From contig NZ_JAVYAA010000001.1 of assembly GCF_032337355.1 (NCBI RefSeq), forward strand, positions 1,253,905 to 1,317,904: DNA of 64,000 bases. Direction: 5' to 3'. Below the pieces are notes generated by a model. The model saw nothing but the letters and a program-made list of their open reading frames with translations, did no database searches and had not been told where the DNA came from. Position numbers and translations under genes: made by a program. This DNA is from Paenibacillus suaedae (GTDB lineage: Bacteria; Bacillota; Bacilli; Paenibacillales; Paenibacillaceae). This document shows, piece after piece, positions 1,445-52,560 of the stretch (position 1 is the stretch's first letter; every line of letters begins with the position of its first letter).

Positions 1445-2169
1445 GTTGCTGCTCCCTCCATAAGCCGCATGCTGTTCATACTGCTCTTTTCAGCCGGATA
1501 AGGATGTACAGCAAGTCGATTAATGGCGGAGATATGAAGCTGCATCGGGTACTGTGAAGCCAAGTGCTGGTCATGGGTGACTGTCAGCAAGGTTGAACCT
1601 TCCTCCTGTGCCAGTTGGAGAAGGAGATTCATCGTATATTGTGCCGTATCGTAATCGAGACTTCCGGTTGGCTCATCCGCTAGGAGAAGGGAAGGGCGAT
1701 TAATCAGGGCACGAATGATCGCAACCCGCTGCTGTTGACCTCTCGACAGCTGCCCTGGAAGATGATTCATACGATCCTGCAAGCCGACCCGCTCGAACCA
1801 TTGCAGAATATGCGAATGCCGTGCCCGTCCATGCAAGCTGCCATCGTAGACCAGCTCAATATTTTGCTTCGCAGATAGGGAAGAGATGAGATGGAAGTCC
1901 TGAAAAATAATGCCCACATTCTTTGAGCGAAAGTGGTCACGTTCCAGCTCTGTCATCTGGTGCAGAGGTTCATTGCCGACCTTACAGGTTCCTTCATCTG
2001 GAGCGAGTACGCCGCACAGCAGGTATAACAACGTGCTCTTGCCGCTGCCGCTAGGGCCAAGCAGTGCAATTCGATCTCCTTGTGCAACATGCCAATGTGG
2101 AATATCGAGAATGGGAAGAAGCTGCTGTTGATTCCGATAGGACTTGCGTACCTGATGAAGCTGTATCAT
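1441..2169 (-). CDS. ABC transporter ATP-binding protein
   Basis: Walker [13 protein letters not shown] signature [15 protein letters not shown] and Walker B LLLADEPT are all present. Confidence 0.9.
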   Translation of the reverse strand: MIQLHQVRKSYRNQQQLLPILDIPHWHVAQGDRIALLGPSGSGKSTLLYLLCGVLAPDEGTCKVGNEPLHQMTELERDHFRSKNVGIIFQDFHLISSLSAKQNIELVYDGSLHGRARHSHILQWFERVGLQDRMNHLPGQLSRGQQQRVAIIRALINRPSLLLADEPTGSLDYDTAQYTMNLLLQLAQEEGSTLLTVTHDQHLASQYPMQLHISAINRLAVHPYPAEKSSMNSMRLMEGAAT

Positions 2170-2243
2170 AGAATCACCTCATTTAGTAAGGAAAAGGCAG
2201 GATGACACTGTCACCCCACCCGTTCTCATTCGAATCGATTTGA

Positions 2244-3983
2244 TTATTTCAAAATGATGCGCTCAGACAAGGAATCCCACTTCAATGCTTTGCCAGTCAG
2301 CTTGCTGAATGCGTCAAGATCCACGTAGAGGACATTGCGATCCAATTCTGCTGGAATCGAAACCGCTTTGCCGTTCAATGTAACGGAAGATCCGTCTTGA
2401 ACCTTCAATGTCGCCTTGTCTTTCGTAAATGTAGTCGTCTTCGATGCGCTATCATTCGTTACTTTAATTTGCAGTGCTTGTGCCAGCTTCAGGGCAGGGA
2501 AGAGAACCTTGCCATCACGGCTTACCTTGAATTTCGGATACAAGTGCTTGCTTTGCAGCTCGGCAGTTGCTTTCTTCAGATCCAAGCCTTGCACTTTCGC
2601 GATGCTTGTCGCAATTGCTGTGTTATCAATTTGACCTTTTACATATTCCGTAATTGGACCATACGCCCATACGCCTACATCTACCGCAGAGTGGCCGTGT
2701 CCAGACCAGCCCACCAAGTAGCGCTTCGCCATCACTTGATTGAATGCGCCTTCTTGCTTATAGGAAGAACCGTCGCCTTGCATGATGTATTGAGCTTCTT
2801 CATCGGTGATATCTGTGAAGCCTGTATGCTTCTTGATTAACGCCTTCACTTCGTCAGTGGATGCAGCTTTTGCAAGCTGTGGCCCAAGCAGCTCAGAGGA
2901 GATTTTTTGCTTGTCCCAAGTATCTACATTTAGTTCATAGATGTTGTCACGGGACAGGGAGAAGCCGCCTGTCTCATGATCGGCTGTAATTACGATGGAA
3001 GTGTTGCCGTCCTTCTTCGCGAAATCAAGAGCAACCTTCACTGCTGCATCGAAATCAAGCGTCTCTTGAATCATGGCGCCCAGATCATTCGCGTGGCCTG
3101 CATGGTCGATACGTCCGCCTTCAATCATCATCGTGAAGCCTTTTGGATTCGTAGAGAGAGACTTAATTGCTGCAGCCGTCATGTCTGCAAGGCTTGGAGT
3201 CTCAGGCTTGCGATCAAGCACGTAGTCTACATGGGAATCGTGGAAGAGGCCAAGAACCTTGCCGTTTTTCGATGTTAACGATTGCAGGCCCTTTTTGTCG
3301 TATACAACTTTATAGCCTTTTTTCTCGAAATCAGGAATGATTGTCTTGTCTTCGCGCTTGCCTTTCTCCTGCTTGCTTACGAATTGACGCTTGCCGCCTC
3401 CGAGCAGAACGTCAACTGCGCCTGACTCTAAATATTGGGATGCGATGGCATTTTCATTGTCGCGATTGCGAACATGGGATGCATATACCGCAGGTGTCGC
3501 ATGTGTAATACGAGCTGTCGTTACAAGACCAGTTGACTTGCCAACAGCCTTAGAAGCTTCGATTACGGAAGCGAATGGCTTCGAGATATCTTCATTTGAT
3601 ACGCTGATTGCAGCGTTGTATGTTTTGTTGCCTGTTGCAAATGCAGTACCTGCAGATGCAGAGTCTGTTACTTCACCGGATACGATCGTATCTCCGTCTT
3701 CGCCCTTGTCAGCGAAGGTTGTTGCTTGGCCCACATACAGGCTGTCCATATATAAGGATGGACGCTTCAGCTTGTTCTTGGAGTAGATTCGTGCGGCAGA
3801 TACTTGAGCAGGACCCATGCCGTCACCGATAAGGACGATGAGATTTTTCGAAGTAGGTTCTGGTTTTGCTGCACCCTTAGCGAGTACTGCATCGGATTGC
3901 ATAGCTCCGAATGGCAGCATGAGAAGTGCCAGCGTCGTCACCAGCGACTTGCGTAACATTTTATTCAACCGAAATCCCTCCAA
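2244..3983 (-). CDS. secreted alkaline phosphatase (PhoA family) with C-terminal copper-amine-oxidase-N-like stalk domain
   Basis: Signal peptide, DGMGP motif, active-site TDSASAGTA motif and metal-ligand DHAGH are present. The C-terminal region resembles stalk-domain repeats of other proteins in this window. Confidence 0.8.
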   Translation of the reverse strand: MEGFRLNKMLRKSLVTTLALLMLPFGAMQSDAVLAKGAAKPEPTSKNLIVLIGDGMGPAQVSAARIYSKNKLKRPSLYMDSLYVGQATTFADKGEDGDTIVSGEVTDSASAGTAFATGNKTYNAAISVSNEDISKPFASVIEASKAVGKSTGLVTTARITHATPAVYASHVRNRDNENAIASQYLESGAVDVLLGGGKRQFVSKQEKGKREDKTIIPDFEKKGYKVVYDKKGLQSLTSKNGKVLGLFHDSHVDYVLDRKPETPSLADMTAAAIKSLSTNPKGFTMMIEGGRIDHAGHANDLGAMIQETLDFDAAVKVALDFAKKDGNTSIVITADHETGGFSLSRDNIYELNVDTWDKQKISSELLGPQLAKAASTDEVKALIKKHTGFTDITDEEAQYIMQGDGSSYKQEGAFNQVMAKRYLVGWSGHGHSAVDVGVWAYGPITEYVKGQIDNTAIATSIAKVQGLDLKKATAELQSKHLYPKFKVSRDGKVLFPALKLAQALQIKVTNDSASKTTTFTKDKATLKVQDGSSVTLNGKAVSIPAELDRNVLYVDLDAFSKLTGKALKWDSLSERIILK

Positions 3984-4330
3984 CCAAGTATGTAATTTAC
4001 ATGTTTATTGTAGTCAAGGATTGTTAGCGATTGTGTAAATAAATGTAATTGGAAAATCAAATAGACTTGTATATTTTGTAAATCACCCCTATTGCGATCT
4101 TTGATACGCCTATGTCCGGCCTGAATAGCAGTAGGTTATAAGATTCGCTTTTATGAGTAGATTTAGCAAATGAAATGCTGCATGTGTCGGTATGGGCTGC
4201 TAGTTGTGAGTAATCGAATAGAAATGGGACGTAAGACCTGTAATGATAATCAGGTAGTCCATTGATTGTTTATCGTATAATACCTATACTTGGTAATGAT
4301 TTGGTAAAAAAGCGGGAGGAGAACGACATC

Positions 4331-33574: not shown

Positions 33575-33852
33575 ATGATTGAATATGGAATTTGTGGTTG
33601 AACACGACCATGTTAATTGTAGTATCGTATATAGAGGATAGTTAGTTCATTATATGAGCTACTTTCCTCTATTTTTTGTTCAATAGAAATCTTAACAATA
33701 GCATTAACACTTTGTATAAATTATTTAATATATTGAGGAGAAAGGCTTTCGTTAGGGGGTTGTTGTGAGAGTACAAGAAGTAATTCTTAATGATAATAAA
33801 AAGAGATATAACGAAAATATCAGTAGTATCAAATAGAGATGGGAGCTTAAAG

Positions 33853-34179
33853 ATGGCGAATAGAATTGTTGGAGACTTGGAAAATAAACTAATCATCTAC
33901 GGGTACAGGAAGCCTCTGCGTTCGCATACTTATTTACCTTTTCTTCCTGAGGCAATAGTTGATGAATTTATAGATGCTACAGTGGTACGAGAGCACGCCA
34001 GTAAAGAACAAGAGATTTATCAAATTTATTACTGTTTTGAAGGGGATGGAGAATTCATTTTTCGAATAATTGTCTCGTATCTCGAGGATTCAATCACCAT
34101 CCTTGCAGATGATGCTAATATCGCGGTGCGTGCTTATAAGGCTCTTTGCGAAAGTTTGGCACGATGGAAGTTACATTGA
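33853..34179 (+). CDS. hypothetical protein (AT-rich islet)
   Basis: RBS GGGAG sits 7 nt before ATG 33853. Confidence 0.4.
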   Translation: MANRIVGDLENKLIIYGYRKPLRSHTYLPFLPEAIVDEFIDATVVREHASKEQEIYQIYYCFEGDGEFIFRIIVSYLEDSITILADDANIAVRAYKALCESLARWKLH

Positions 34180-34354
34180 AGCTAATGGGTAATGATAGTA
34201 AAGTTGAGCAAACAACCGCAGCGGTCAGCTTTGTCGTTGAAGTAACTGGCAGGATAGTTGAATGATTTTGCGAATAACTTAAGTCATGACGAATTTACGA
34301 AGTTCGCAAAAAAGACGTTAGCCGAAAGAAGTTCTTAGTTTAGGAGGAGTCTAT

Positions 34355-35125
34355 ATGATATTAGAAAAAGTTATAAATAGAATTGTAATACAAAGTGAAT
34401 ATAAGGATTTTGTTGATAAGTATATAGATAATATACTTACCGAATTTAAAGGTAAGATTCATAGCATTTATATGTGTGGCTCAATTCCAAAAGGAACTGC
34501 TAAACCTTTTAAGTCAGATGCAGACTTTACTATTGTATGTGTAAATCCCAAAGATATTGATTACGAAAGATTGTCAAATATTAAAGACAGGCTTTTGGAA
34601 GAATATCCAGTATTAACTAAGATTGATACGATAATTTGCTCGATTGACGATGTATTAAGTAAACCAAATGATTGGGGTTTTTGGGTAAAGATAATTTGTG
34701 TTTGCATATATGGTCATGACGTTGGTGAAAAAGTACCACCGATAATTATTTCTCCAGAGTTCATTTTAGACTTAAATACAGAGACCAAGAAGGAAGTAGA
34801 TCGTATTCATAGTTTACTTTCTAATGCTAGTGATAACACAATGAAAACTAGATATATTAAAGGTTACTCTAAGAGATTAATTCGTGCATTATACTCTTTG
34901 GTTTTAGAAGATACAGGTGTATGGCAAGATGACATTATTATGATGAAGAATGCCATATTAAACTATTGTGAGATTGACTCCGCTTTAGTTGATTATCTGT
35001 ATGCTTGTTACTTGGATAGTAATAATGTACTTGTTGAAGAGTTTCTGGGAATTGCAGATGAAGTATATAGCTATTTTGAGAACGCGTTAAATGCAATGGC
35101 TGCTTCCAGAACTTCCTTCGACTAA
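34355..35125 (+). CDS. Pol-beta-type nucleotidyltransferase-domain protein (KNTase/ANT-like architecture)
   Basis: Motif GSIPKGTAKPFKSDADFTIV (GS-x9-13-D-x-D) with a helical C-terminal domain. RBS AGGAGG. Confidence 0.5.
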   Translation: MILEKVINRIVIQSEYKDFVDKYIDNILTEFKGKIHSIYMCGSIPKGTAKPFKSDADFTIVCVNPKDIDYERLSNIKDRLLEEYPVLTKIDTIICSIDDVLSKPNDWGFWVKIICVCIYGHDVGEKVPPIIISPEFILDLNTETKKEVDRIHSLLSNASDNTMKTRYIKGYSKRLIRALYSLVLEDTGVWQDDIIMMKNAILNYCEIDSALVDYLYACYLDSNNVLVEEFLGIADEVYSYFENALNAMAASRTSFD

Positions 35126-35329
35126 CACCATATTGACGTTTCGGGTCACTCTGAGAAGCGAGTGACCACATCCAGCCCCCTAAGCCCGTCGGGACGTCAC
35201 TGCATTAGGTGTTCGGCAAGCCTCACAACTATAAGCAGCGACTCTAATTAAAACATAAGACTATTGAGCTAACGGGCAGGTTAGTACAGATATGGTTTTC
35301 CTTTTAATTCAAATAATTGACTTTAAATA

Positions 35330-38695: not shown

Positions 38696-38941
38696 AGTTC
38701 AGTCCTAGTCCGCCGATGCTTCTTATTACGGGGTCAGTCTAAAACTTATTTTACAGAGGCGCCGATTTTGCAATTCAAAAGCCGCATAGGATCAACAACC
38801 TCGGTACAATAGTATATTTTCCCGTGACAATTACGGTGCTGGTTTATTGAACTAACCGTGCCTGTTAGTTTCATGAATACAGTTATAGAAGATCATGAAC
38901 AGAGTAAAAATACTCTCATCATGAGTGATTTGTCTACTTCA

Positions 38942-39508
38942 TTACAACTCGGTAATCGGGATGAACGGTTCGGGCTTGTTTGTGTGATCGCCTATCATTT
39001 TCTCCATCCAGATCATATCGTACCACTGATCAAATTTGTAAGCGCATTTGGTGAAATGAGCTACCTTCTTATAGCCTAGATGGCTGTGGAATTTCTCGCT
39101 GCCGTTGTCCAAAAATTCATTCGGCTCACATGGATAAGAGATACATGCGTTCACGTTAATAACATTCTGCCGCTTCAAGGCGTCCTCCAAAGCATAATAC
39201 AGCTTCTTGCCTAGTCCAGCTCCGCGACAATCCTGCCGTAGATACACGCTTGTTTCAACTGACCAGTCATACGCAGCACGGCCTTTAAAGACAGATGCAT
39301 ATGCATATCCGCAGATTCTCTCGTTTTGAATGATTACTAGATAGGGGTATCTTTGCAGCGTTTGCCGAATTCGATTTGCAAATTCTTGGACAGTTGGTAC
39401 GGTATACTCGAACGTGATAGCCGTATCGGTGACATAGGGAGCGTAGATGTGTAACAGCTCCTGCGCATCAGCTTCTTCTGCCATGCGAATGTAAATATCT
39501 TGGTTCAT
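38942..39508 (-). CDS. GNAT family N-acetyltransferase
   Basis: RGAGLGKKLYYALEDALKRQNV acetyl-CoA-binding motif. Confidence 0.7.
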   Translation of the reverse strand: MNQDIYIRMAEEADAQELLHIYAPYVTDTAITFEYTVPTVQEFANRIRQTLQRYPYLVIIQNERICGYAYASVFKGRAAYDWSVETSVYLRQDCRGAGLGKKLYYALEDALKRQNVINVNACISYPCEPNEFLDNGSEKFHSHLGYKKVAHFTKCAYKFDQWYDMIWMEKMIGDHTNKPEPFIPITEL

Positions 39509-39878
39509 AAACGCTCGCCTTTCTATTAATGTTGTCGTAGTCTATGTGTTCATGATTTTAGCATAATTCTCAGTAACGTACATCATTTTCACTGCTCTTG
39601 ATTGGTTTACAATGCTAGGAGACTGCACAGAGTGAAGACATGTGGGAGCTAGGAGCAGCTTGTGCAGATGCAGCAGTAGGAGGTTGCAAGGACGTTGCCA
39701 TCGAGCCACTGATGTATGCTCTGTCCGGCACACTGAAATACTGGAGAATTATTAGATACGATGATTTTCGCCGATTCTCTATTAGGGAGTCGGTTTTTTT
39801 TTGTAATTTAAAATATTTTTACTGAACATCGTCTTTTTGATGATTCATATCGTTAATAGAGATGAGGGGGGGAGTACT

Positions 39879-40457
39879 GTGCTTTCCGATGAGGAGCTAA
39901 TTACAGAAATACGAAGCGGCAGCCAAGCTGCAATGGAGATGCTGGTCAAGCGGCATTACGCGATGATCTTCTCATACATCTATCGCAAGATCGGGAACCA
40001 TCATACTGCATATGATCTGACGCAAGAAGTATTCATCAAGATGATGCAATCGCTGCCCAGCTATCAGAGCCATGGCAAGTTCGAACATTGGCTGCTGAAA
40101 ATTGCTGTTAATCACTGTCTAGACTACTACCGCAGCAAACAGTATCGTAACTCGCATGTCCAAGCTGAACTGGACGAGACGATTCCGGATGCTCATAGCA
40201 ACGTATGGGACTTATTCCAGTTGCATGACCAGCAGGAACAAGCGAAGCAGGCTGTGCTCGCTCTGCCGGAACATCAGCGAGATGCTATCATTCTCAATTA
40301 TTATCATGGGCTTAAGATACGAGAGATTGCGGATGTGACGGGAGCAAATGAATCGACCATTAAATCTCGTATTCGTTCGGGAATTTCAAGGCTGAAGAAA
40401 ATGCTGCTAGGAGAGGAGGAATCGAGCGATGAGCAAGCGGAGAGAAAACAAGGGTAA
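39879..40457 (+). CDS. ECF (sigma-70 family) RNA polymerase sigma factor
   Basis: Likely GTG start after RBS GAGGGGGGGAG. Region 2 YDLTQEVFIKM and region 4 IADVTGANESTIKSRIRSG are present. Confidence 0.7.
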   Translation: MLSDEELITEIRSGSQAAMEMLVKRHYAMIFSYIYRKIGNHHTAYDLTQEVFIKMMQSLPSYQSHGKFEHWLLKIAVNHCLDYYRSKQYRNSHVQAELDETIPDAHSNVWDLFQLHDQQEQAKQAVLALPEHQRDAIILNYYHGLKIREIADVTGANESTIKSRIRSGISRLKKMLLGEEESSDEQAERKQG

Positions 40458-41310
40458 GTCAGTTTGGGAGGAGGACATGGAGAAAGCGGACGATCTTGAT
40501 GCAGAGCTGTGGATGCTTGAATCGGTATTACAGCAATACCGTGTGGAACTGCCCGAGGAACAGCGAATCAATACTACCATTGACGTACTGCGACAATATG
40601 TCCCTGATATAAGCGAAAACCCGCGGGAAGTATCAATGATGAGCTATTGGCGACGATGGATCAACCTGTGGAAGATAGCTGCTGCTGATATTGGCATGTT
40701 CAGTAAGCTGTACTGGATAAGTTGTCTTATTTTGTTCGGGGCAGGGGGATGGATGGGTGTGACTGTTCAGCAGATGCCTGCTATCGTAGTCATTCTTTTT
40801 TCACCGCTTCCGTTCGTGATTGGGTTATTAGAAGTGTTCAAGGGAAGGGAGCAGGGGGTTCTGGAAATGGAGCTGGCCTGCAAAGTTTCTGCACAGGAGC
40901 TAATGCTATCGCGTCTGCTTTTTATCGTAATGAATAGTCTTATTCTGAACACCTGCTTATCTGGCCTAGTATATCTTGTTCGTGGCGATATTTCATTTTG
41001 GGGTCTAACGTGGACTTGGTTTACACCGTTTATCATCGTTGCTAGCTCATCTCTATGGCTGGCTATGCGTATCCGATGTACCGTCAGTTCGATGGTGACA
41101 ATAAGCATATGGATGGCTGTCGGAATGATCTTACTCACACGTCCGGATATGCTAACGCGCATGATGGATTTACATATACTCATTACGATTTTGGTTAATG
41201 CAGGTGCAGTGTATCTTCTATTCAGACAAGGGTGGAAGCTGCTGCGAAATCACACCTTTATTGCGGAAGGAAGCTTAAGCTATGGAGCTAACGATTCAGA
41301 ATATTTCTAA
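40429..41310 (+). CDS. polytopic membrane protein, probable anti-sigma factor
   Basis: Overlaps the sigma gene. Six or more TM helices. Confidence 0.5.
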   Translation: MSKRRENKGKSVWEEDMEKADDLDAELWMLESVLQQYRVELPEEQRINTTIDVLRQYVPDISENPREVSMMSYWRRWINLWKIAAADIGMFSKLYWISCLILFGAGGWMGVTVQQMPAIVVILFSPLPFVIGLLEVFKGREQGVLEMELACKVSAQELMLSRLLFIVMNSLILNTCLSGLVYLVRGDISFWGLTWTWFTPFIIVASSSLWLAMRIRCTVSSMVTISIWMAVGMILLTRPDMLTRMMDLHILITILVNAGAVYLLFRQGWKLLRNHTFIAEGSLSYGANDSEYF

Positions 41311-42151
41311 ACAATTCAAAGAGCTTGTTGCCGTCAATCAATTTACTGCTGAATTAAGCTGCGGTGTATATGGCTTGCTGGGCCCGAATGGAGCGGGAAA
41401 GACAACATTGCTGCGCATGCTTGCGGATATTCTGCGTCCAACTAGCGGCATGATTCGGTTGAATGGGCAGGATATACGAACGATGGAAGAGCGTTATCGG
41501 GATGTCCTCGGCTATTTGCCCCAGCAATTTGGATACTACAGGCAGTTCACTGGGCGACGATTTCTCATGTACATTGCGGCGTTAAAAGGGCTTGAAAAAA
41601 GGGCTGCAGCTACAAAGGTCGAGGAAGTTCTTCAACTGGTCGGTCTTGGTTATGAAGCAGACTCTAAAATAAAATCCTACTCCGGAGGTATGCGGCAGCG
41701 GCTCGGTATAGCGCAAGCATTATTGAATGATCCGAAGGTGCTCATCCTGGACGAGCCTACTGCCGGACTTGATCCAACAGAACGAATTCGTTTTCGCAAT
41801 ATATTATCGGAAATGTCCGCAAATCGGATCATCCTGTTATCAACTCATATTGTGTCGGATATCGAGTACGTTGCCAAAGATGTGCTGCTTATGAAACAAG
41901 GATACCTGCTCAAGCAAGATAGGCTCGTCTCTTTATTAAAAGAATTGAAGGAATCGGTATGGAAGGTCACGGTTGATGAAAATCAGCTCCCCGTCTTGAA
42001 ACAGCGTTACAAGATAGTCAATATCCTTCGCCGTGACAGTGGGGTTGAGGTTCGTATCCTGTCTCCAGACAAGCCGCTGCTGACAGCTCAGCCAGTGACG
42101 GCAGGATTGGAAGACCTATATTTTCATTATTTTAATGAGGAGATTATGTAA
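41282..42151 (+). CDS. ABC transporter ATP-binding protein (BcrA-like)
   Basis: GPNGAGKTT, SGGMRQRLGIAQALL, LILDEPTAGLD. Confidence 0.85.
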   Translation: MELTIQNISKQFKELVAVNQFTAELSCGVYGLLGPNGAGKTTLLRMLADILRPTSGMIRLNGQDIRTMEERYRDVLGYLPQQFGYYRQFTGRRFLMYIAALKGLEKRAAATKVEEVLQLVGLGYEADSKIKSYSGGMRQRLGIAQALLNDPKVLILDEPTAGLDPTERIRFRNILSEMSANRIILLSTHIVSDIEYVAKDVLLMKQGYLLKQDRLVSLLKELKESVWKVTVDENQLPVLKQRYKIVNILRRDSGVEVRILSPDKPLLTAQPVTAGLEDLYFHYFNEEIM

Positions 42152-43278
42152 TGAGACAGTTATTGAGGTACGAGCTGTTGAAGATCGTATGGCGCAAGAG
42201 CGTATTTGTTGTTGGTCTATTAATTGCAGCTATCTATACGGTGGTTATTGCATTTCATGCTGAATATTATCAAGATGGGTCAAAAGAATACCGCTCATAT
42301 GCGCGTGAGATTACAGCAGAAGATATTCAGCGGGTGGATGAAAGATACAAGAGGAGCAACTGGCATCAGCTGCCGATTCAAGAAAAAAGTATTATGGAGG
42401 ATATCTCAGGAATACCCAATATGCTGCATAAATATGAACAGAAACTGATCGATATCGACATGCGGCTCATGCTAAGCAAGCCTGACTCATACGAATATAA
42501 ACAAAACAAATTACAAGAAAAACTACTGTCGGAGCAAGGGCCGCCAACCGCTCAATTATACTATAATATGCCATGGGGCGAATTGATCTATATGGTCGAT
42601 CAATTTGGTGTTGCCTTCATGGGAGCCATGCTTCTCATCGGACTTTCTCCAATCTATTCAGAAGAATATACTAGGAGGATGGACAGCTTGCTCTTAAGCA
42701 GCAGACATGGGCGAAGCAAGCTTATTCATGCAAAATGCTTAGCAGCTATTCTGTACACCTTGTTGTGTGTCCTGGTATTTCAGCTGATCAATATGGGGGT
42801 AACGGCCTTGTTGTTTGGCAACTTGGATGGAGCCACCACACCTCTTGATAGTATGAGAAGGTATGGAGACACACGTCCTTTTGCAGAATATCCGTATTCA
42901 TTCACCGTGTTAGAGTACTATTTTATTCAATTAGGGGTGCAAACCATTGGCTGTGCAGCATTTGCGATTGCCGTGACGTTTATTTCCTCACTTAGCCGTT
43001 CATCGTTGGTCACGATGTTGCTAGCGGGGGGCGTACTTGGAATTCCCTATCTACTATTGGATGTTCGTAATATTCGTTATCCGATTATCGAATGGATGGT
43101 GACATTCGGCTACAGTCAGTTTATCCGGGTTACACATCTTTTCAACAGTTTCCGTACAGTTAATCTCTTTGGGGAGCCTATCCTATATCCGATAGCTGCA
43201 TTAGCAGCTCTTTTGGCAGTGACGGCCGTCTTTGTATGGGGAACAACCTTGTTATTCCGACGTCGGCAAGCATGGTAG
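42151..43278 (+). CDS. ABC-2 type transporter permease
   Basis: ATGA overlap. Six TM helices. Confidence 0.7.
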   Translation: MRQLLRYELLKIVWRKSVFVVGLLIAAIYTVVIAFHAEYYQDGSKEYRSYAREITAEDIQRVDERYKRSNWHQLPIQEKSIMEDISGIPNMLHKYEQKLIDIDMRLMLSKPDSYEYKQNKLQEKLLSEQGPPTAQLYYNMPWGELIYMVDQFGVAFMGAMLLIGLSPIYSEEYTRRMDSLLLSSRHGRSKLIHAKCLAAILYTLLCVLVFQLINMGVTALLFGNLDGATTPLDSMRRYGDTRPFAEYPYSFTVLEYYFIQLGVQTIGCAAFAIAVTFISSLSRSSLVTMLLAGGVLGIPYLLLDVRNIRYPIIEWMVTFGYSQFIRVTHLFNSFRTVNLFGEPILYPIAALAALLAVTAVFVWGTTLLFRRRQAW

Positions 43279-46289: not shown

Positions 46290-46383
46290 ATGACTAAATC
46301 ATAGGGAAATAATTATTCTGCGCAAAAACAGCCAGCGATTTCTTCGCTTTAAGTTGTAAAGCAGATAAATATTTGTCATTCAA

Positions 46384-46399
46384 CTCACGGGTACTTTAG
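46384..46399 (+). repeat. CTAACGGGCAG-family motif copy (ctcacgggtactttag)
   Basis: Variant of the array motif. Confidence 0.5.
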
Positions 46400-46420
46400 T
46401 ATAACTATTGAGTATGTAAG

Positions 46421-46669
46421 GTGGACGGGTTTGGGGGATATTTAGCCGATAGTTCAAAGCCATTCCCTAATTTCTTTCCAGTTGGACTATTTACAACACG
46501 CGAATTAGCTATTAACCAAATTGAAGCCATGCCCAGAGATAATAATTATCAGCTACTTCGGATGCCGATAAATAAAGACTTTTCGTATTTCCATAAAAAG
46601 AGTGGAAAGTTAGTTGGAATGGATGCTATTCATCACGAACATTTTCATTATAAAGACGAGTCAAATTAA
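46421..46669 (+). CDS. small hypothetical protein
   Basis: 82-aa ORF. Start uncertain. Confidence 0.35.
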   Translation: MDGFGGYLADSSKPFPNFFPVGLFTTRELAINQIEAMPRDNNYQLLRMPINKDFSYFHKKSGKLVGMDAIHHEHFHYKDESN

Positions 46670-46676
46670 TCATTAA

Positions 46677-46694
46677 GCTAACGGGCAGTTTAGC
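46677..46694 (+). repeat. array motif copy (gctaacgggcagtttagc) 8 nt after stop
   Basis: Seen directly in the sequence. Confidence 0.6.
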
Positions 46695-46781
46695 TTGGGA
46701 AATGTTAAGCAATGTGATAGGGGAATTGGTCTATCTGTAGAATTAATAATCATTTATTGTTTATTTAGGAGACCTAACCTT

Positions 46782-47099
46782 ATGAAGCTTTTTGCGAAAG
46801 AAGTTAAGAAGATTGTAGTCAACAATTATGAGTTTCTTTGCGTAATCGACCAAAGATCTGAAAAGGACTTCATTAGTTTTAAAATATACCCGTCCGAGAC
46901 GAAAACATCGTATTTCTTAATATTATTTTCTTGGAAAATCAACTGGGCAACGAATCTTTGTCAACCGATTGTTTGTGCAAAGTTAATTCAACATGCCATA
47001 AGAAGTGGTTGGATCTATAATATTAAACGCTCTGTATTTAAGATTCAAAATGGAGACGATCTAATTGGTCAATTAGGTTTAGATCAGTTAGACCGATAA
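46782..47099 (+). CDS. small hypothetical protein
   Basis: RBS AGGAG before ATG 46782. Confidence 0.4.
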   Translation: MKLFAKEVKKIVVNNYEFLCVIDQRSEKDFISFKIYPSETKTSYFLILFSWKINWATNLCQPIVCAKLIQHAIRSGWIYNIKRSVFKIQNGDDLIGQLGLDQLDR

Positions 47100-47113
47100 C
47101 TCCAATCGGTTGA

Positions 47114-47130
47114 GCTGACGGGCAGGATAG
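47114..47130 (+). repeat. array motif copy (gctgacgggcaggatag)
   Basis: Seen directly in the sequence. Confidence 0.6.
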
Positions 47131-47433
47131 TTTAATGATTTCGCCGAATTCATCTTCAGAGGTGAAAAGAATATGAAAACTATATTTTTAGTTCAACATT
47201 CTTAAGAGGTCGGGGAAGATGTATGATGAGCCAGGTCTTAGGGATTATTTAGATGCTTTTTATATTAGTGAATATGAAATTGACAAAGATAATTGGACAG
47301 AAGGGTTTAGTAAATGGTCAGAAGCGAATGAACAAGTGAATGAGTAACTTGTTTCTACGTTGAACTAACGGAGAACGATAGTTGAATACAGACACGAAGG
47401 CAGCCGGTCATAATGATCGGATGCCTTTGTTTT

Positions 47434-47450
47434 ACTAACGGGCAGTTTAC
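47434..47450 (+). repeat. array motif copy (actaacgggcagtttac)
   Basis: Seen directly in the sequence. Confidence 0.6.
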
Positions 47451-47483
47451 TTCGAAAAGGTATGAAGAAAGGACTATTCTAAC

Positions 47484-47855
47484 ATGGAACACGTATCAAA
47501 TGTAGACAAGCAGGAATCAATAAAATCTTTGCAATCGACAATCAGTAAACTAGAGAATGCCTTGTCCCAGATGACTCAAAATGGTGCAAGTACTACTCTA
47601 GTGAAGAAACGGCTCAGAGCTATTTACATCGGCTTAGCTTTGCTAGAAAACGTTTGGAATCAAAGCCCCCATCATTATACCCAGGGAGATTTAGCAGAAG
47701 CTCGCAATGTTATTACTGGTTTATTTCCATCAATTGAAAACAGTTATGCTAAGTCAAAGACTGGTAGTCCCCAAAGAACACTCCTGGAAAGAAGAATTAA
47801 AGCGTTAGAACTAGCTGTTCAAGCGATTGACGAACTTTCCACTAATAACTCGTAA
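47484..47855 (+). CDS. hypothetical helical protein
   Basis: 123-aa ORF. Confidence 0.45.
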   Translation: MEHVSNVDKQESIKSLQSTISKLENALSQMTQNGASTTLVKKRLRAIYIGLALLENVWNQSPHHYTQGDLAEARNVITGLFPSIENSYAKSKTGSPQRTLLERRIKALELAVQAIDELSTNNS

Positions 47856-47888
47856 TATCAACGAAGCACCTCTAAGTTAACGGGACAC

Positions 47889-47907
47889 GATAGCTTAATA
47901 AATAACT
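47889..47907 (+). repeat. array motif copy (gttaacgggacacgatagc)
   Basis: Seen directly in the sequence. Confidence 0.55.
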
Positions 47908-47922
47908 AAAACGTGGCTGCCG

Positions 47923-47954
47923 TCATGGATCGGCAGCCACGTTGCGCTAACCGG
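47923..47954. repeat. perfect 12-bp-stem palindrome acgtggctgccg-tcatggat-cggcagccacgt
   Basis: A T tract follows only on the minus strand. Confidence 0.6.
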
Positions 47955-47957
47955 CAG

Positions 47958-47975
47958 GATAATGGTAATGGAATA
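47958..47975 (+). repeat. array motif copy (gctaaccggcaggataat)
   Basis: Seen directly in the sequence. Confidence 0.55.
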
Positions 47976-48069
47976 ATGAGGAATTACCTCGAATTTCAAA
48001 TAGGTGAGAAAAACAGAACATAATACTCGTCTATATAGATGTACCAACTTTATGAGGAAGGAGAAAGTT

Positions 48070-48651
48070 ATGAGCTGCAATCAGACAGATGATGATATCA
48101 TCACCCTTATTCTTCATGGTAAGCCCGAACGGTTCGCTGATTTGGTCAACAAATACAAACAGAAAGTGTATGGGATCTTAGTCGGGATGGGTGCGACCCA
48201 CGAGGATGCACAAGATACCGCCCAAGAGGCCTTCATGAAAGCATACCGTAATCTGGGGTCACATGAATCAGGCAAGAGCTTTGCCGCATGGCTATATACC
48301 ATTGTTGTTCGCACATTCCAGGATAAATTTAAGCGTAAAGCATTGACCCTGATTGAACTGGATACAGATAATTTCATAGAAGTGGATACGCCAGAACATA
48401 TCTACTTGAAAGCTGAGTCCGAAGCAGACATTCATCGCCTGATGTTGCAATTATCCGATATACAACGGCTGGTCTTATTATTGCGCTATACCGAAGAGCT
48501 TACTTATGAAGAAATGTGCGCTGTAACAGGGTTGAACATGCATCAAGTCAAAAATGCATTGTACCGTGGTAAACAATCACTAAAACGCCTCATCGAGCAG
48601 AAAGGAGCGTATGCATGTGGCACAGAATTGCATCAATCAAGAACGTATTGA
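48070..48651 (+). CDS. ECF sigma factor
   Basis: RBS GGAAGGAG. Regions 2 and 4 are recognisable (EEMCAVTGLNMHQVKNALYRGKQSLKRL). Confidence 0.7.
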   Translation: MSCNQTDDDIITLILHGKPERFADLVNKYKQKVYGILVGMGATHEDAQDTAQEAFMKAYRNLGSHESGKSFAAWLYTIVVRTFQDKFKRKALTLIELDTDNFIEVDTPEHIYLKAESEADIHRLMLQLSDIQRLVLLLRYTEELTYEEMCAVTGLNMHQVKNALYRGKQSLKRLIEQKGAYACGTELHQSRTY

Positions 48652-50329
48652 GGAGTTAATGATCCAGAAACAACTGGGTACTGTGATGGAACATATCGAA
48701 GGATGTATAGCATGTCGCCTTCGGTTGGAGGCATGTATTGAGGAAGGCCAGATGTTGAAGGACGCACTATTTCATGCACAACCTGACGAGGATTTCACCG
48801 CGCAGGTCATGGCTGGTATTCTCTCTACTGACAGCGCTTCTATAGAGGAGCAACAAATTTCAGAAGATGGTGAGAATTACAGCGGGTGGTTCCGTCGGAA
48901 GCTGCGTATTCGTTGGCCACTGGTTACTGCCGCAGGATTACTGCTGGTTCTCCTCTCCATGAGTTTCGCGCAGCCGACGATTGCGAATTGGATTAAATCT
49001 TTGTTCAGCACGACGGATACTGTCGATGTAAGCTTGTTGCACTCGGAGAATTTAGGCATTCATCACTTTGCAAATATTAAGGTGAGTGACAAAGGATATA
49101 CGCTTGAGATCAAGGAAGTCGTTGTCGATACGGTCCGAGCACTCATTGCGTATCGTCTAACCGATCCAAGTGGAAAAGTGGTCAACGATATGTTTAATGC
49201 GGATTTGATTGCATTTACGGATGCGAATGGGAAGTCAATAGGTGCGCGTGTGACAGGACATGATTTTTTACCTGAGTTAAAAGAGAATGGATATGTTAAT
49301 TCTGGGTATTCTATTGCGAAAATAAGCTTCGTCAACACCCCAGAAACGGATATCATTCACATGAACGGCAACATTGACTATATTGGCCACACTTCGGAGA
49401 AACCTGAATTCTATAATTTTCTGCAAGGAAATTGGCGTTTTTCCATGGAGATCGACATCAAATTAGCGAGGAAGCAGTTTCAAATGATTCCACTACATGA
49501 CGCGAAATATATAGCGCCAGATGGCACACAGATTGCAGCTACGAAATTAATTTATCATGCCAGCGCATACCAAATTGAATTTCAAACCAGGATTTCTCCA
49601 GCTGCGGTACCTCCATCAGATCCCATTCATATGAATGACTACCACCAGTTAGGTTTTTACTTGGAGGATCAACATGGGAATAAGCTTGGTAGAGTGAATT
49701 ATGCGGCCAACGATAAGGATGAGGATTATCGCAGCACTCTAGACAATATGTACTGTCGTAATGACAACAAGGATTCGTCTGATTTAATCACCTGTATATA
49801 TACGATGTATAACATTAGGGACAACGTGCCTGATCCGGCTCGAATCGTTGTGAAGAATTACAACCTTCCCGTACATTCTTCGGAATCGGTTACGGTCAAT
49901 ATGAAGCAATTATCATCACATCCCGTTACTATGAAGGCGCAGGGAGATGTACTCGCAGTGATGAAAGTAGATGGATTTGCAGATTCACGGCCTTTTTTAG
50001 AACAGGGCAAAGGGACTTCGTTGAAACTAATCGTATCTGGCGTATTTCGTAATAACTTTAGGTATGATCAATGGGTAGCAACGGATGAAGCAGGTCAAGC
50101 TTATACACTATATATCAATGGGACTGGTGAGATGCATTACAAGAACGTTGAAGACGACCGCATGACACTTACATTAGAAGGAGGAAGACCTGAGGAGTCA
50201 CCATTCGCCCTCGTTGATGGCATGCAGCATATACCGAAGCAGCTCACACTTACACGAAAAGTTACTGATAAATTATTTACCGGCTTGGAGTGGAGTATTC
50301 TTTTGCCTGCTTGCACACAAGAGGACTAG
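48611..50329 (+). CDS. anti-sigma factor (N-terminal zf-HC2-like CxxC, single TM, large extracytoplasmic domain)
   Basis: HIEGCIACRLRLEAC, TM helix LVTAAGLLLVLLSM, overlap with the sigma gene. Confidence 0.6.
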   Translation: MHVAQNCINQERIEELMIQKQLGTVMEHIEGCIACRLRLEACIEEGQMLKDALFHAQPDEDFTAQVMAGILSTDSASIEEQQISEDGENYSGWFRRKLRIRWPLVTAAGLLLVLLSMSFAQPTIANWIKSLFSTTDTVDVSLLHSENLGIHHFANIKVSDKGYTLEIKEVVVDTVRALIAYRLTDPSGKVVNDMFNADLIAFTDANGKSIGARVTGHDFLPELKENGYVNSGYSIAKISFVNTPETDIIHMNGNIDYIGHTSEKPEFYNFLQGNWRFSMEIDIKLARKQFQMIPLHDAKYIAPDGTQIAATKLIYHASAYQIEFQTRISPAAVPPSDPIHMNDYHQLGFYLEDQHGNKLGRVNYAANDKDEDYRSTLDNMYCRNDNKDSSDLITCIYTMYNIRDNVPDPARIVVKNYNLPVHSSESVTVNMKQLSSHPVTMKAQGDVLAVMKVDGFADSRPFLEQGKGTSLKLIVSGVFRNNFRYDQWVATDEAGQAYTLYINGTGEMHYKNVEDDRMTLTLEGGRPEESPFALVDGMQHIPKQLTLTRKVTDKLFTGLEWSILLPACTQED

Positions 50330-50400
50330 CTCACTGCTGTTAAGCCTTGTATTGTACTATAAAAACAGTTTAACTTTTTTTATATGACCTTGTATGGTTA

Positions 50401-50419
50401 CTCTAACGGGTACGATAGT
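50401..50419 (+). repeat. array motif copy (ctctaacgggtacgatagt)
   Basis: Seen directly in the sequence. Confidence 0.55.
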
Positions 50420-50438
50420 TGACTAACACACTTTATTG

Positions 50439-50466
50439 AGCAGGCGACGATAGTCTGCTCTTTTTG
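50439..50466 (+). terminator. rho-independent terminator (gagcag-gcgacgatagt-ctgctc then TTTTT); its loop contains a motif-like gacgatag
   Basis: Seen directly in the sequence. Confidence 0.65.
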
Positions 50467-50470
50467 TTAA

Positions 50471-50488
50471 GCTAATCGGTAGGTTCGT
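50471..50488 (+). repeat. array motif copy (gctaatcggtaggttcgt)
   Basis: Seen directly in the sequence. Confidence 0.5.
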
Positions 50489-50801
50489 ATGAAAAGCCCC
50501 TACTTGTATTTATCTATGCGTAATGTTAATCTGAACAATAGAGATGCAAACAAAGGAGCATTAAACCTTATCATGTTGATTACTCTGTAAAGATTAACAA
50601 TTCGAAAAGATGCCTGTAATAGTGACTATACTATTTTATTTGGCATGCTTTTCTTTAATCTTACAGGGTATGCAGGGAAAGGTATATCATAAACCCATTC
50701 TGCGGATACCTGATGGTATCCGCTTTTATTTTCGCGGGAAACCGCATCTCTATTGATTCTTACCTGCTTATCCTCCTAATAACGAATGGAGGAACTATAT
50801 T

Positions 50802-51656
50802 ATGAGATCGAAGTTAGTCTTGATTGAGGGGTTGCCAGGATCCGGGAAAACAACAACTGCTGAACTAGTTCATGAAATTCTTACGGAAATGAACATTAAA
50901 TCTCAGCTGTTTTTAGAAGGAAATCAAGATCATCCTGCTGATTATGACGGAGTCGCCTTTTTTAAGAAAAATGAATTCGATGAATTATTGAGTACCCACG
51001 AAAAGTTCAAAGATTTGTTGAGTAATCGTATGATTAAAGATGGTAACAATTACTTCCTAGAATATCGGAAAGTAAAAAACGAATACGATTCACGTTTTCC
51101 AGATGAATTGCTACATGCAGTTTTCAAAAATGATGTGTATGAATTGTCACTAGATCTGAACAGGAAACTGATAACAGAGAAATGGAAGAAGTTTACGGAG
51201 AGTGTTTTGAATGGTACAGACACCTTTGTTTTTGATTGTTGTTTTATACAAAATCCTGTAACTATGGGGATGATTAAATATGCCGCAAAGAAGGAAGACG
51301 TTATAAGTTATGTCATAGAACTGGCAACAATTGTGGAGCAACTGAATCCATTGTTGATTTACGTAGAACAGAACGATTTTGAACTTTCTTTCAGAAAGGC
51401 TGTAAAAGAAAGACCTCAAGAATGGTCAGAGGGATTTATAGAATATTATACAAGCCAAGGGTATGGAAAAAAGCAGAGTTACAAAGGGTTAGAAGGAACT
51501 CTGCAGGTTCTTAAGGCAAGAAGGGAATTAGAAGAAGAAATATTTAATGGCTTACATATAGCTAAGAAAAAAGTGGACAACTCTTCCTATCATATTAACG
51601 ATTATAAGCAAGTTTTAGTGGGGATTTTATCAGAATATTTTGACGCAACAAACTAA
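50802..51656 (+). CDS. P-loop NTPase/kinase-like protein
   Basis: Walker A GLPGSGKTT at the N-terminus. RBS GGAGG. Confidence 0.55.
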   Translation: MRSKLVLIEGLPGSGKTTTAELVHEILTEMNIKSQLFLEGNQDHPADYDGVAFFKKNEFDELLSTHEKFKDLLSNRMIKDGNNYFLEYRKVKNEYDSRFPDELLHAVFKNDVYELSLDLNRKLITEKWKKFTESVLNGTDTFVFDCCFIQNPVTMGMIKYAAKKEDVISYVIELATIVEQLNPLLIYVEQNDFELSFRKAVKERPQEWSEGFIEYYTSQGYGKKQSYKGLEGTLQVLKARRELEEEIFNGLHIAKKKVDNSSYHINDYKQVLVGILSEYFDATN

Positions 51657-51670
51657 CGAGAATCTATTAC

Positions 51671-51690
51671 ACTAAACGGGACACGTTAAC
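51671..51690 (+). repeat. array motif copy (actaaacgggacacgttaac)
   Basis: Seen directly in the sequence. Confidence 0.5.
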
Positions 51691-51696
51691 GCAATG

Positions 51697-51748
51697 GAAC
51701 AGCGACAGTCTAGGACTTTATTTTCTCGTCCTAAGCTGTCGCTGTTCC
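51697..51748. repeat. long palindrome (21-bp arms ggaacagcgacagtctaggac / gtcctaagctgtcgctgttcc)
   Basis: Seen directly in the sequence. Confidence 0.65.
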
Positions 51749-51777
51749 AGCTTCTCAGGTCAGTCTAACAGCGTCCG

Positions 51778-52401
51778 TTATTTATTGTCCGCCTCTGCCA
51801 GAGAGAGTAGATATTCTGCCACATTCACAGGCACTTTAGAGTAGAACTTACGGATGGGGGCAAGGGAAGGTAGAGGTTCCATTACCATATAGTATCCATC
51901 CTTATTTTTGTATAACGTGTTTCGGCTGGTTTCGTAAAGTTCCCCCGTATTGTTGCCAAACACGGTTTTCGTCTTTTCCGACCACGTTACATAGACAAGC
52001 AAGTCCTTCGCATCTTCCGGGATGGAACGAAGGTATTTCCAACGCTCAATATGGAGGTTTTTTGTAAATTCGAAGATTTGCTTATTGTCTGTGATCGTAT
52101 GCAATCGACTGCCATCGGTAATGGAGTGAACTTCTATTTTCTGTTTTTTTTGTGCCATACGATCCTTGACATCGTCCCATTCTATATTTTGCACATCTTC
52201 ATCATCCTCAATCTCTGTAGCGACTTCGTCCCAGACAGCGTTTTGTACGGTCTCATTCACGAAATTGGCTGTATCTTCTAATTCCTCAAGACCTTGGACA
52301 CTTTCTACAATCTGGTTTGTTATTATGCCTGATGAACAACCGCCCAGAAGCAATGCTGCCGCCAGTCCGCCAATCAGGAGTATATTTTTCTTGTTACGCA
52401 T
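51778..52401 (-). CDS. lipoprotein, hypothetical
   Basis: RBS GGGGGAT. Lipobox LLGGCSSG. The tracked upstream extension is likely spurious. Confidence 0.55.
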   Translation of the reverse strand: MRNKKNILLIGGLAAALLLGGCSSGIITNQIVESVQGLEELEDTANFVNETVQNAVWDEVATEIEDDEDVQNIEWDDVKDRMAQKKQKIEVHSITDGSRLHTITDNKQIFEFTKNLHIERWKYLRSIPEDAKDLLVYVTWSEKTKTVFGNNTGELYETSRNTLYKNKDGYYMVMEPLPSLAPIRKFYSKVPVNVAEYLLSLAEADNK

Positions 52402-52476
52402 CGTTATCCCCCGTTCCTTTTTTGCCAAACTAATAATCAATAACCTACAAACAAAATCGTTCGCACACAAAAGAGT

Positions 52477-52512
52477 GCTGCAACCATTCAGATTGTAGCA
52501 CTCGATCCTTTT
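52477..52512 (-). terminator. rho-independent terminator after the kinase gene
   Basis: gagtgct...agcactc with a T tract on the minus strand. Confidence 0.5.
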
Positions 52513-52560
52513 GAGATTATGCACTTGTAAAAAATCGACGGGGTTTTTGTCAAAATTGGG

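Follow-up and report, generated by a model that had tools for sequence, protein, structure and literature searches.

A short repeated site that appears to bound mobile gene cassettes in Paenibacillus suaedae and other Bacillales, and a candidate Xer-like recombinase

What is the short motif that recurs past the stop codons of successive small genes in Paenibacillus suaedae, a member of the P. alvei group? Here we report an analysis of a 64-kb stretch of this genome (the window) that carries the motif, together with comparisons of related loci. The comparative evidence is strong that the motif constitutes the core of a longer, 28-30 bp sequence with the properties of a site-specific recombination site. 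In the model that we favour, and consider likely to be correct, these sites and the gene cassettes between them are moved by a dedicated Xer-like recombinase. A preliminary description of the locus had suggested that the genes form a cassette array and the motif a conserved site of recombination or processing, and this suggestion is supported by the intergenic, clustered placement of the motif and by the variability of the locus among strains.

The repeat itself is real and far above chance. The sequence CTAACGGGCAGNNTAG occurs seven times in the window with up to two mismatches, always on the plus strand, against 0.26 occurrences expected. A position-weight scan for the extended site across the whole window, with shuffled sequence as a control, recovered 12 strong plus-strand sites (S1 to S12; starts in Table 1) and one minus-strand site at 38846; shuffled sequence gave 0-2 hits, even at a much weaker threshold. 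All of the sites are intergenic and lie within 34-52 kb, and the scan found no strong site in 1-34 kb or 52-64 kb. The preliminary description had listed ten copies of a 17-nt motif, all in the same orientation. Its motif as written has 16 letters, and eight of the ten coordinates are correct to within 1-2 nt, although the copies placed at 47889 and 47958 belong at 47877 and 47947 (∼11 nt away), the copies at 34242 and 47365 and the minus-strand copy were omitted, and a motif-like copy reported at 50441 proves to be merely the loop of a terminator hairpin (50438-50460). Uniform orientation holds for the 12 plus-strand copies but not for the site at 38846. Both of the long palindromes that it described are present, at corrected positions of 47910-47943 and 51696-51748.

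A consensus built from 528 unique sites, drawn from the window and related loci, comprises two inverted 11-bp arms, RTTRARCTAAC on the left and GATAGYTNAAT on the right, flanking an asymmetric centre that is either GGGCAG (6 nt) or GGG-N1-2-AC (6-8 nt). Of these sites, 67% have A at position +2, which creates a conserved A.A asymmetry at +/-2. Judged by its sequence, this arrangement of two arms around a 6-8 bp centre matches that of tyrosine-recombinase core sites, dif being an example. The preliminary description had reported no consistent hairpin; the motif is in fact the middle of an 11-6/7-11 imperfect palindrome, although the arms of this palindrome do indeed lack covariation. They are conserved in sequence, Watson-Crick pairing between them is no more frequent than expected from independent columns, and mutual information is at most 0.03. 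Such a pattern fits recognition of double-stranded half-sites by a protein rather than a hairpin selected for its structure alone, and conservation driven by structure, whether of the attC or the RNA kind, was rejected on the negative covariation test.

The placement of the sites was assessed with a genome scan of one genome per species, using the pattern CTAACGGGN{3,4}GATAGYTNAAT, which returned at least 120 stretches of 8 kb; counts given here for 120 loci refer to the stretches among the matches listed. Rather than being spread at an even density across genomes, the sites are intergenic and clustered: only 10% fall within predicted open reading frames (ORFs), compared with the 75% of sequence that is coding, and the nearest upstream ORF lies on the strand of the site in 386 cases, against 48 on the other. 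These features also suit an RNA-level explanation, in which the site is a hairpin in the 3′ untranslated region (UTR) that controls processing, stability or termination of the upstream gene: it is co-oriented with that gene, lies 0-30 nt after many stop codons, can be folded into an imperfect 11-bp stem that closes a loop of 6-7 nt, and is often followed 3′ by a true terminator. We regard this explanation as decidedly improbable, given that no compensatory arm changes were seen in the 528 sites, that Rfam gave no match to the whole window at gathering thresholds or to the region even at E<=10, that the site hairpin lacks a U-tract of its own, and that the synteny breakpoints and two-half inheritance set out below are DNA-level properties. 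The site may have an RNA role alongside recombination.

A lookup of the 123-aa protein encoded in the window retrieved ten contigs of related strains (L001-L010), and far from being invariant, the locus shows gain, loss and permutation of cassettes among these P. alvei-group strains, with breakpoints inside the sites. The cassette encoding a 256-aa nucleotidyltransferase (NTase-256) immediately precedes the 123-aa cassette in L001, L003 and L004 and is 12 kb away from it in the window; L001, which has an unrelated chromosomal context, carries the 123-aa cassette before the 105-aa cassette, the reverse of the window; L002 has the gene order 85 aa, 105 aa, 123 aa; and in L007-L010 an IS110-family element is upstream of the 123-aa gene. 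Homology detected by BLAST spans exactly 34243-35275 for the NTase-256 cassette, 46670-47125 for the 105-aa cassette and 47360-47899 for the unit formed by the 123-aa cassette and a mini-cassette, a type of element described below, and the homology between L003 and the window has an edge at 38857, within the minus-strand site. In L007 the left arm of S4 runs directly into the centre and right arm of S6, and by its sequence this junction is the product expected from an S4 x S6 deletion of the two cassettes between. Single cassettes also recur in other species. The NTase-256 cassette is found, in every case between sites and with 94-98% nucleotide identity, in P. vulneris, P. harenae, P. castaneae, another Paenibacillus and a Cohnella sp.; the cassette for a P-loop nucleoside triphosphatase (NTPase) is present with 89-91% nucleotide identity in P. 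eucommiae (L084) and P. castaneae (L100); and the P-loop and 123-aa cassettes are 86-91% identical in other species. Variation in the region is partly not site-mediated: a block encoding an extracytoplasmic function (ECF) sigma factor and an ABC transporter (39837-43278) is absent from L002 (5940-6060), and loss of this block (39.6-43.2 kb) through the sites was rejected because the deletion ends within genes, not sites.

The rearrangements can be mapped within the site. Of 268 internal BLAST endpoints between genomes across the 120 loci, 100 are no more than 40 nt from a site, a zone that covers 4.7% of the sequence. Pairs of sites that share only their upstream flank have the left arm in common and differ in the right arm, and pairs that share only their downstream flank have the right arm in common and differ in the left. 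The variable part of the centre is identical in 70% of upstream-sharing pairs, 38% of downstream-sharing pairs and ∼10% of unrelated pairs. Since the arms segregate with their flanks and the centre is linked to both, exchange appears to map to the centre, whose sequence can seemingly derive from either partner, and this is the pattern that a staggered-cut tyrosine recombinase acting on differing overlaps would leave. We also considered a crossover to the left of the centre, with the whole centre travelling with the downstream arm, and rejected it when the larger analysis of pairs linked the centre to both flanks.

Some of the mobile units appear to have no gene at all. Three doublets in the window have sites 69-70 nt apart and one common layout, with a site of GGG..AC centre, ∼45 nt containing a GC-rich hairpin, and then a site of ..GCAG or ..GTAG centre; a T-run follows the hairpin in two of the three. 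Adjacent sites 50-75 nt apart form 112 pairs across all loci, and close pairs combine a first centre of NNAC type with a second that is GGGCAG in 85 of 125 cases. The unit between S6 and S7 is also present in L001, L003, L070 and L118, and because it stands there behind different upstream cassettes, we interpret these frequent ∼70-nt units as ORF-less terminator cassettes, here termed mini-cassettes.

Nearly all of the site-bearing stretches, over 100 in number, belong to Bacillales, Paenibacillus being the most frequent host. Sites were also found in Cohnella, Brevibacillus, Aneurinibacillus, Ammoniphilus, Neobacillus, Niallia, Cytobacillus, Lysinibacillus, Viridibacillus, Sporosarcina, Psychrobacillus, Halalkalibacter, Aeribacillus and Ectobacillus. 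Hits in metagenome-assembled genomes of Corynebacterium and Pirellulales (L043, L065) were discarded as chance, having one and zero sites, respectively, by the position-weight scan. A stretch can hold up to 15 sites, all on a single strand, and one genome can have multiple distant arrays, as in Paenibacillus sp. H1-7 at 2.29, 2.38, 4.50 and 4.58 Mb. Resistance-like proteins are among the cargo, including nucleotidyltransferases, GNAT and APH proteins, glyoxalases and proteins of the beta-lactamase fold. On plasmid pSP10-266k of Sporosarcina psychrophila (L148, 4098-6799), merR-merA lies between two sites beside a recombinase gene and an IS110-family gene, so that resistance modules of operon size would also seem to travel as cassettes.

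If cassettes move by site-specific recombination, an enzyme should accompany the sites. Clustering of the ORFs of the 120 loci revealed no integrase at array ends. Within an array, between two sites, L035 encodes a 280-aa Xer-like tyrosine recombinase, of which decayed copies occur in L051 and L027. This protein defines a first clade of 468 homologues at E<1e-20, the best 91 of 120 listed being 78-98% identical, with named hosts among the matches listed that include many Paenibacillus species, Cohnella and 'Bacillus sp. FJAT-28004'. A second clade, recovered with a query rebuilt from the L051 pseudogene, comprises 535 homologues of a 279-aa protein ∼50% identical to clade 1, and its hosts (Sporosarcina, Paenisporosarcina, Viridibacillus, Neobacillus, Peribacillus, Metabacillus and others) overlap the site-bearing genera other than Paenibacillus. 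The L035 gene, eight further close homologues and one plasmid copy, from nine genomes, all lie inside arrays (L035, L137, L138, L139, L141, L142, L143, L144/L145, L146 and plasmid L148). Clade 1 genes are co-oriented with the sites, with a site 95-108 nt upstream of the start codon in L138, L139 and L141 and usually a second just past the stop; near the start there is no strong upstream site in L137, which has only a degenerate copy, or in L142. Clade 2 genes are inverted relative to the sites on both sides, with a site ∼100 nt upstream in L143, L146 and L148. As its neighbours differ in every genome, the recombinase gene behaves as a cassette itself.

The residues R138, K162/K165, H229, R232, H255 and Y264, corresponding to the R, K, HxxR, H and Y of the catalytic site, do not vary in either clade, and matches to PF02899 (SAM-like N-terminal domain) and PF00589 (catalytic domain) place the protein in the Xer superfamily of tyrosine recombinases. 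Models of XerC, XerD and XerA give 180-198 bits, all below their cut-offs, and the protein is not a canonical XerC or XerD (CodV/RipX), for which 185-198 bits compare with cut-offs of 330-335. The nearest solved structures are XerC-like, XerD and XerA, at 1e-30 for XerD and XerC-like chains compared with 3.6e-13 for IntI4 in the PDB. The integron integrase model TIGR02249 matches in two stretches (profile positions 12-181 and 241-301), with scores of 82-91 bits where the cut-off is 265, and positions 182-240 are skipped; by sequence, then, the recombinase is not an IntI and lacks the IntI-specific insertion. The sites differ between hosts as the enzymes do. Among the sites of Paenibacillaceae loci, 61% carry A at position +2 and the centres are GGGCAG or GGGNNAC; among those of Bacillaceae and Planococcaceae loci, 81% carry T there and the centres are GGGGCAG or GGGTGC, so the two site variants appear to track the two recombinase clades. 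From this co-variation and the association with arrays, the Xer-like protein is the likely cassette-moving enzyme.

The 5′ UTR of the recombinase gene is itself conserved: a CCTCCC segment pairs with a GGGAGG ribosome-binding site, or CCCCCC with GGGGGG in L051, and versions of this arrangement are present in L138 (8795-8890), L139 (9906-10001), L035, L137 and L051 (3700-3824). This pairing suggests that the recombinase is under translational control.

Could these be true integrons, with IntI and attC, that integron-finding tools have overlooked? The one-strand arrays of promoter-poor single genes, the resemblance of the arm cores CTAAC...GTTAG to the attC R''/R' boxes RYYYAAC...GTTRRRY, the targeting of sites by IS1111-like elements and group II introns as happens at attC, and the name 'tyrosine recombinase/integron integrase' given to some homologues at NCBI could all be cited in support. 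We nevertheless consider it extremely improbable in view of the skipped IntI-specific insertion and low TIGR02249 score, the shortness of sites that have sequence-conserved arms without L boxes or structure-only conservation, and the position of the recombinase inside arrays, often co-oriented with them, of which there are several per genome.

Insertion elements and introns are found at the sites themselves. L007 carries an IS110/IS1111-like element (2533-4283) at the CT of a left arm (...ATTAAG-CT-AACGG...), with CT at both junctions; it encodes a 421-aa DEDD transposase and has ∼375 nt of non-coding sequence downstream of this gene. Junctions of such elements also occur in L004, L005 and L008-L010, the target corresponding to S4 of the window; a tblastn search with the transposase detected no copy in the window itself. 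Group II introns lie in or beside sites in L087 (∼1745-3660), L096 (∼1570-3200) and L017; the intron of L087 splits the loop of a hairpin homologous to window 51696-51748, and in L096 and L017 the inserted sequence starts directly after CTAACGGG.

The main rival to the Xer-based model takes the sites to be elements like the repetitive extragenic palindromes (REPs), with a structural, terminator-associated or mRNA-stabilising function, that happen to serve as hot spots for IS110-family insertion, with rearrangements caused by insertion sequences (IS) or by recombination over short homologies and no dedicated system. The sites do lie past stop codons on the strand of the gene, IS110-family elements insert at the left-arm CT as they do in REPs (PMC1525189), IS110-family genes are the commonest array neighbours (18 of 120 loci), and the L003 junction lies at the IS core. 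Against this, the arrays are clustered and same-strand, neither dispersed nor alternating; no gene resembling a REP-associated tyrosine transposase (RAYT) is among the recurrent neighbours in the 120 loci; IS-free breakpoints occur inside sites, with arms that segregate with their flanks; near-identical single cassettes are found in different genera; and a tyrosine recombinase is embedded in arrays in 9/9 genomes. Furthermore, RecA-dependent exchange in Bacillus needs homology far above 28 bp, so that the site alone would be much too short for it. On balance we judge this rival unlikely.

We give very little credence to a related proposal, that a bridge-RNA-guided IS110-family recombinase acting at the left-arm CT moves the cassettes in place of the Xer-like enzyme. 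It would accord with the frequency of IS110-family genes as neighbours, and by sequence alone the crossover could fall in the invariant CTAACGGG block. However, the IS copies that we examined are ordinary insertions that disrupt a site, each having ends of its own and a duplication of the CT; the centre is linked to both flanks, which puts exchange to the right of this CT; the IS ends are unlike the site, such that both donor and target loops would need reprogramming; and no domesticated single-copy IS110 gene was seen.

Under the favoured, Xer-based model, the stretch between two sites would be a mobile cassette, usually of one gene, sometimes an operon and often a ∼70-nt terminator unit, which would start with a right arm (5′) and finish with a left arm (3′). 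Dimers of the recombinase would bind double-stranded sites and exchange strands within the centre, excising a circle with one site, and integration of this circle at any other site would rebuild two sites. Partners with differing centres would have to be tolerated, and the invariant GGG beside the left arm could supply the homology for the first strand swap. The outcome would be same-strand arrays 3′ of stop codons at several places on chromosomes and plasmids, with the 279-280 aa Xer-like recombinase, itself array-borne and putatively catalytic, as the likely enzyme. A broader formulation, to which we give slightly better than an even chance, is that of an order-wide Bacillales analogue of the integron, in which the array-borne Xer-like enzyme captures, excises and shuffles cassettes and mobile terminators, heterologous centres are tolerated, and chromosomal and plasmid arrays are exchanged between genera.

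Several observations weigh against these interpretations. The recombinase that the preliminary description proposed to look for was found beside sites in other genomes, but tblastn detected no copy of its gene in the 64-kb window. Two homologues have no array: one that is 69% identical, in the prophage-like contig L140, and one that is 52% identical, on the B. mycoides plasmid p507 (L147, 9900-10843), where none lies within 10 kb on either side; upstream of the latter there is only a left-arm-like half-site, TTGAATAACTAAC, together with the UTR that pairs with the ribosome-binding site. The near invariance of CTAACGGG makes the exact cleavage positions unmappable from sequence, and the partners of a classical tyrosine recombinase do not usually have centres that differ in length, as these do (6, 7 or 8 nt). 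The IS110-family element accounts better for some rearrangements close to sites, among them the L003 junction at the CT of S4.

The features of the window are collected in Table 1. The preliminary description had also raised the possibility of an orphan-immunity array, which finds no support in the window: Pfam assigned no family to the 82-, 105- and 123-aa cassette proteins. Imm11 and SUKH-type genes were seen in arrays of other genomes. Genes for ECF sigma factors recur in 10 of the 120 site-bearing loci. The leader of the P-loop NTPase gene (50494-50801) contains a terminator-like hairpin (50702-50723) and T-run just before the start codon, and could act as an attenuator or a riboregulator. 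The plus strand shows positive GC skew along the entire window, suggesting that the array is co-oriented with replication. The segment 8001-24000 has no sites and a G+C content of 0.36-0.37, compared with 0.40-0.49 elsewhere in the window, and may be another acquired island.

Table 1. Sites, cassettes and associated features of the P. suaedae window, in 5′ to 3′ order.
Feature	Position	Strand	Remarks
Degenerate site copy	34176-34204		Overlies stop of ORF 33790-34179
Site S1, GTTGAAGTAAC TGGCAG GATAGTTGAAT	34236-34263	+	5′ boundary of NTase-256 cassette; homology to L001, L048, L076, L036 begins here
Cassette with 256-aa nucleotidyltransferase, ORF 34355-35125	34264-35262	+	Pfam NTP_transf_2
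Site S2, ATTGAGCTAAC GGGCAG GTTAGTACAGA	35263-35290	+	3′ boundary of NTase-256 cassette
Minus-oriented site, ATGAAACTAAC AGGCACG GTTAGTTCAAT	38846-38874	-	68 nt past stop of minus-strand GNAT gene 38942-39508
Site S3, centre GGGTAC	46378-46405	+	Upstream of 82-aa gene
82-aa cassette gene	46421-46669	+	No Pfam family
Site S4, ATTAAGCTAAC GGGCAG TTTAGCTTGGG	46672-46699	+	IS110-family insertion at its CT in L005, L007
105-aa cassette gene	46782-47099	+	No Pfam family
Site S5, GTTGAGCTGAC GGGCAG GATAGTTTAAT	47109-47136	+	
42-aa cassette gene	47219-47347	+	Weak DUF7336 match (Pfam)
Doublet: S6 (GGAGAAC), terminator mini-cassette (hairpin 47396-47428), S7 (GGGCAG)	47359-47456	+	Site starts 47359 and 47429, 70 nt apart
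123-aa cassette gene	47484-47855	+	No Pfam family
Doublet: S8 (GGGACAC), mini-cassette (hairpin 47910-47943), S9 (CGGCAG)	47871-47968	+	Site starts 47871 and 47941, 70 nt apart
Two-gene cassette: ECF sigma (likely start 48071), DUF4179 anti-sigma (48611-50329)	48004-50329	+	Pfam
Doublet: S10 (GGGTAC), terminator mini-cassette (hairpin 50438-50460 and T-run), S11 (CGGTAG)	50397-50493	+	Site starts 50397 and 50466, 69 nt apart
Cassette with 284-aa P-loop NTPase (50802-51656), leader ∼300 nt	50494-51666	+	Pfam
Site S12, TTACACTAAAC GGGACAC GTTAACGCAAT	51667-51695	+	Last plus-strand site
Long hairpin of terminal mini-cassette	51696-51748	+	Homologous to hairpin split by group II intron in L087
Degenerate minus-oriented site	∼51758-51790	-	Overlaps stop of minus-strand gene 51778-52524

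Classical integrons are overwhelmingly Gram-negative, and the system proposed here would apparently be an undescribed Gram-positive counterpart. Our literature search found no description of the motif, of integron-like cassettes in Paenibacillus or Firmicutes, or of an Xer-like cassette system, and a survey of miniature inverted-repeat transposable elements does not cover these elements (PMC11602168). If the proposal is true, a large unexplored route exists for the movement of single genes between Gram-positive genomes and plasmids of soil Bacillales (Paenibacillus, Cohnella, Brevibacillus, Neobacillus, Sporosarcina, Lysinibacillus and Viridibacillus), carrying resistance-like enzymes, the mer operon, sigma/anti-sigma pairs and immunity proteins. 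On a practical level, one small recombinase paired with a simple 28-bp site in double-stranded DNA would make a candidate genetic tool. The system would furthermore provide an example of terminators acting as mobile cassettes, and of IS1111/IS110 elements and group II introns converging on cassette sites in two unrelated systems.

Several known systems share parts of this organisation. The inverted ∼11-bp arms, the 6-8 bp centre and the exchange that sequence comparison places in this centre are those of a dif-like core site, although we take the sequence to be unrelated to Firmicutes dif (that of B. subtilis). The pdif/dif modules of Acinetobacter plasmids likewise have sites of ∼28 bp and 11-6-11 layout, presumed substrates of Xer-type enzymes, that flank modules of one or a few genes, and these modules recur in different contexts. 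Unlike pdif sites, which alternate in orientation (C/D, D/C) and presumably rely on XerC/XerD of the host, those described here form direct repeats, with all sites of an array on one strand and a dedicated array-borne paralogue, and the arrays are mainly chromosomal and much longer. REPs, the bacterial interspersed mosaic elements (BIMEs) that they form and their RAYTs are comparable in that short imperfect palindromes lie in intergenic DNA 3′ of genes and are preferred targets of the IS110 family. In contrast to alternating BIMEs, the arrays here are in direct orientation, their sites delimit mobile genes, and no RAYT (Y1 HUH) was seen among the recurrent neighbours. With IntDOT of CTnDOT, the Int of Tn916 and the one-strand Xer recombination of CTX phage the likeness concerns mechanism alone, as those enzymes move large elements: partners may differ in the overlap or centre while a few bases on one side are conserved (here GGG), and the centre of the product would come from either partner.

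The closest parallel is with integrons, and the differences lie chiefly in the parts. The Bacillales recombinase, without the IntI-specific insertion, is nearest to XerC, XerD and XerA; attC sites are structure-conserved hairpins of 57-141 nt with the layout R''-L''...L'-R', whereas the sites here are short, conserved in sequence and resemble R boxes only in their arm cores. No divergent intI with an attI/Pc platform was recognised in these arrays; instead the recombinase gene lies within an array with sites on both sides, and a chromosome can have several arrays. Many cassettes here carry their own terminator, and transcription from one common promoter is for this reason improbable. What is shared is the organisation of the whole: in both systems mostly single-gene cassettes, each with its recombination site just 3′ of the gene, form one-strand arrays; cassettes bounded by these sites, some without an ORF, are shuffled between strains and common to different host species; the cargo includes resistance-like genes; IS1111/IS110-type elements and group II introns exploit the sites as targets; and the enzyme belongs to the Xer superfamily of tyrosine recombinases.

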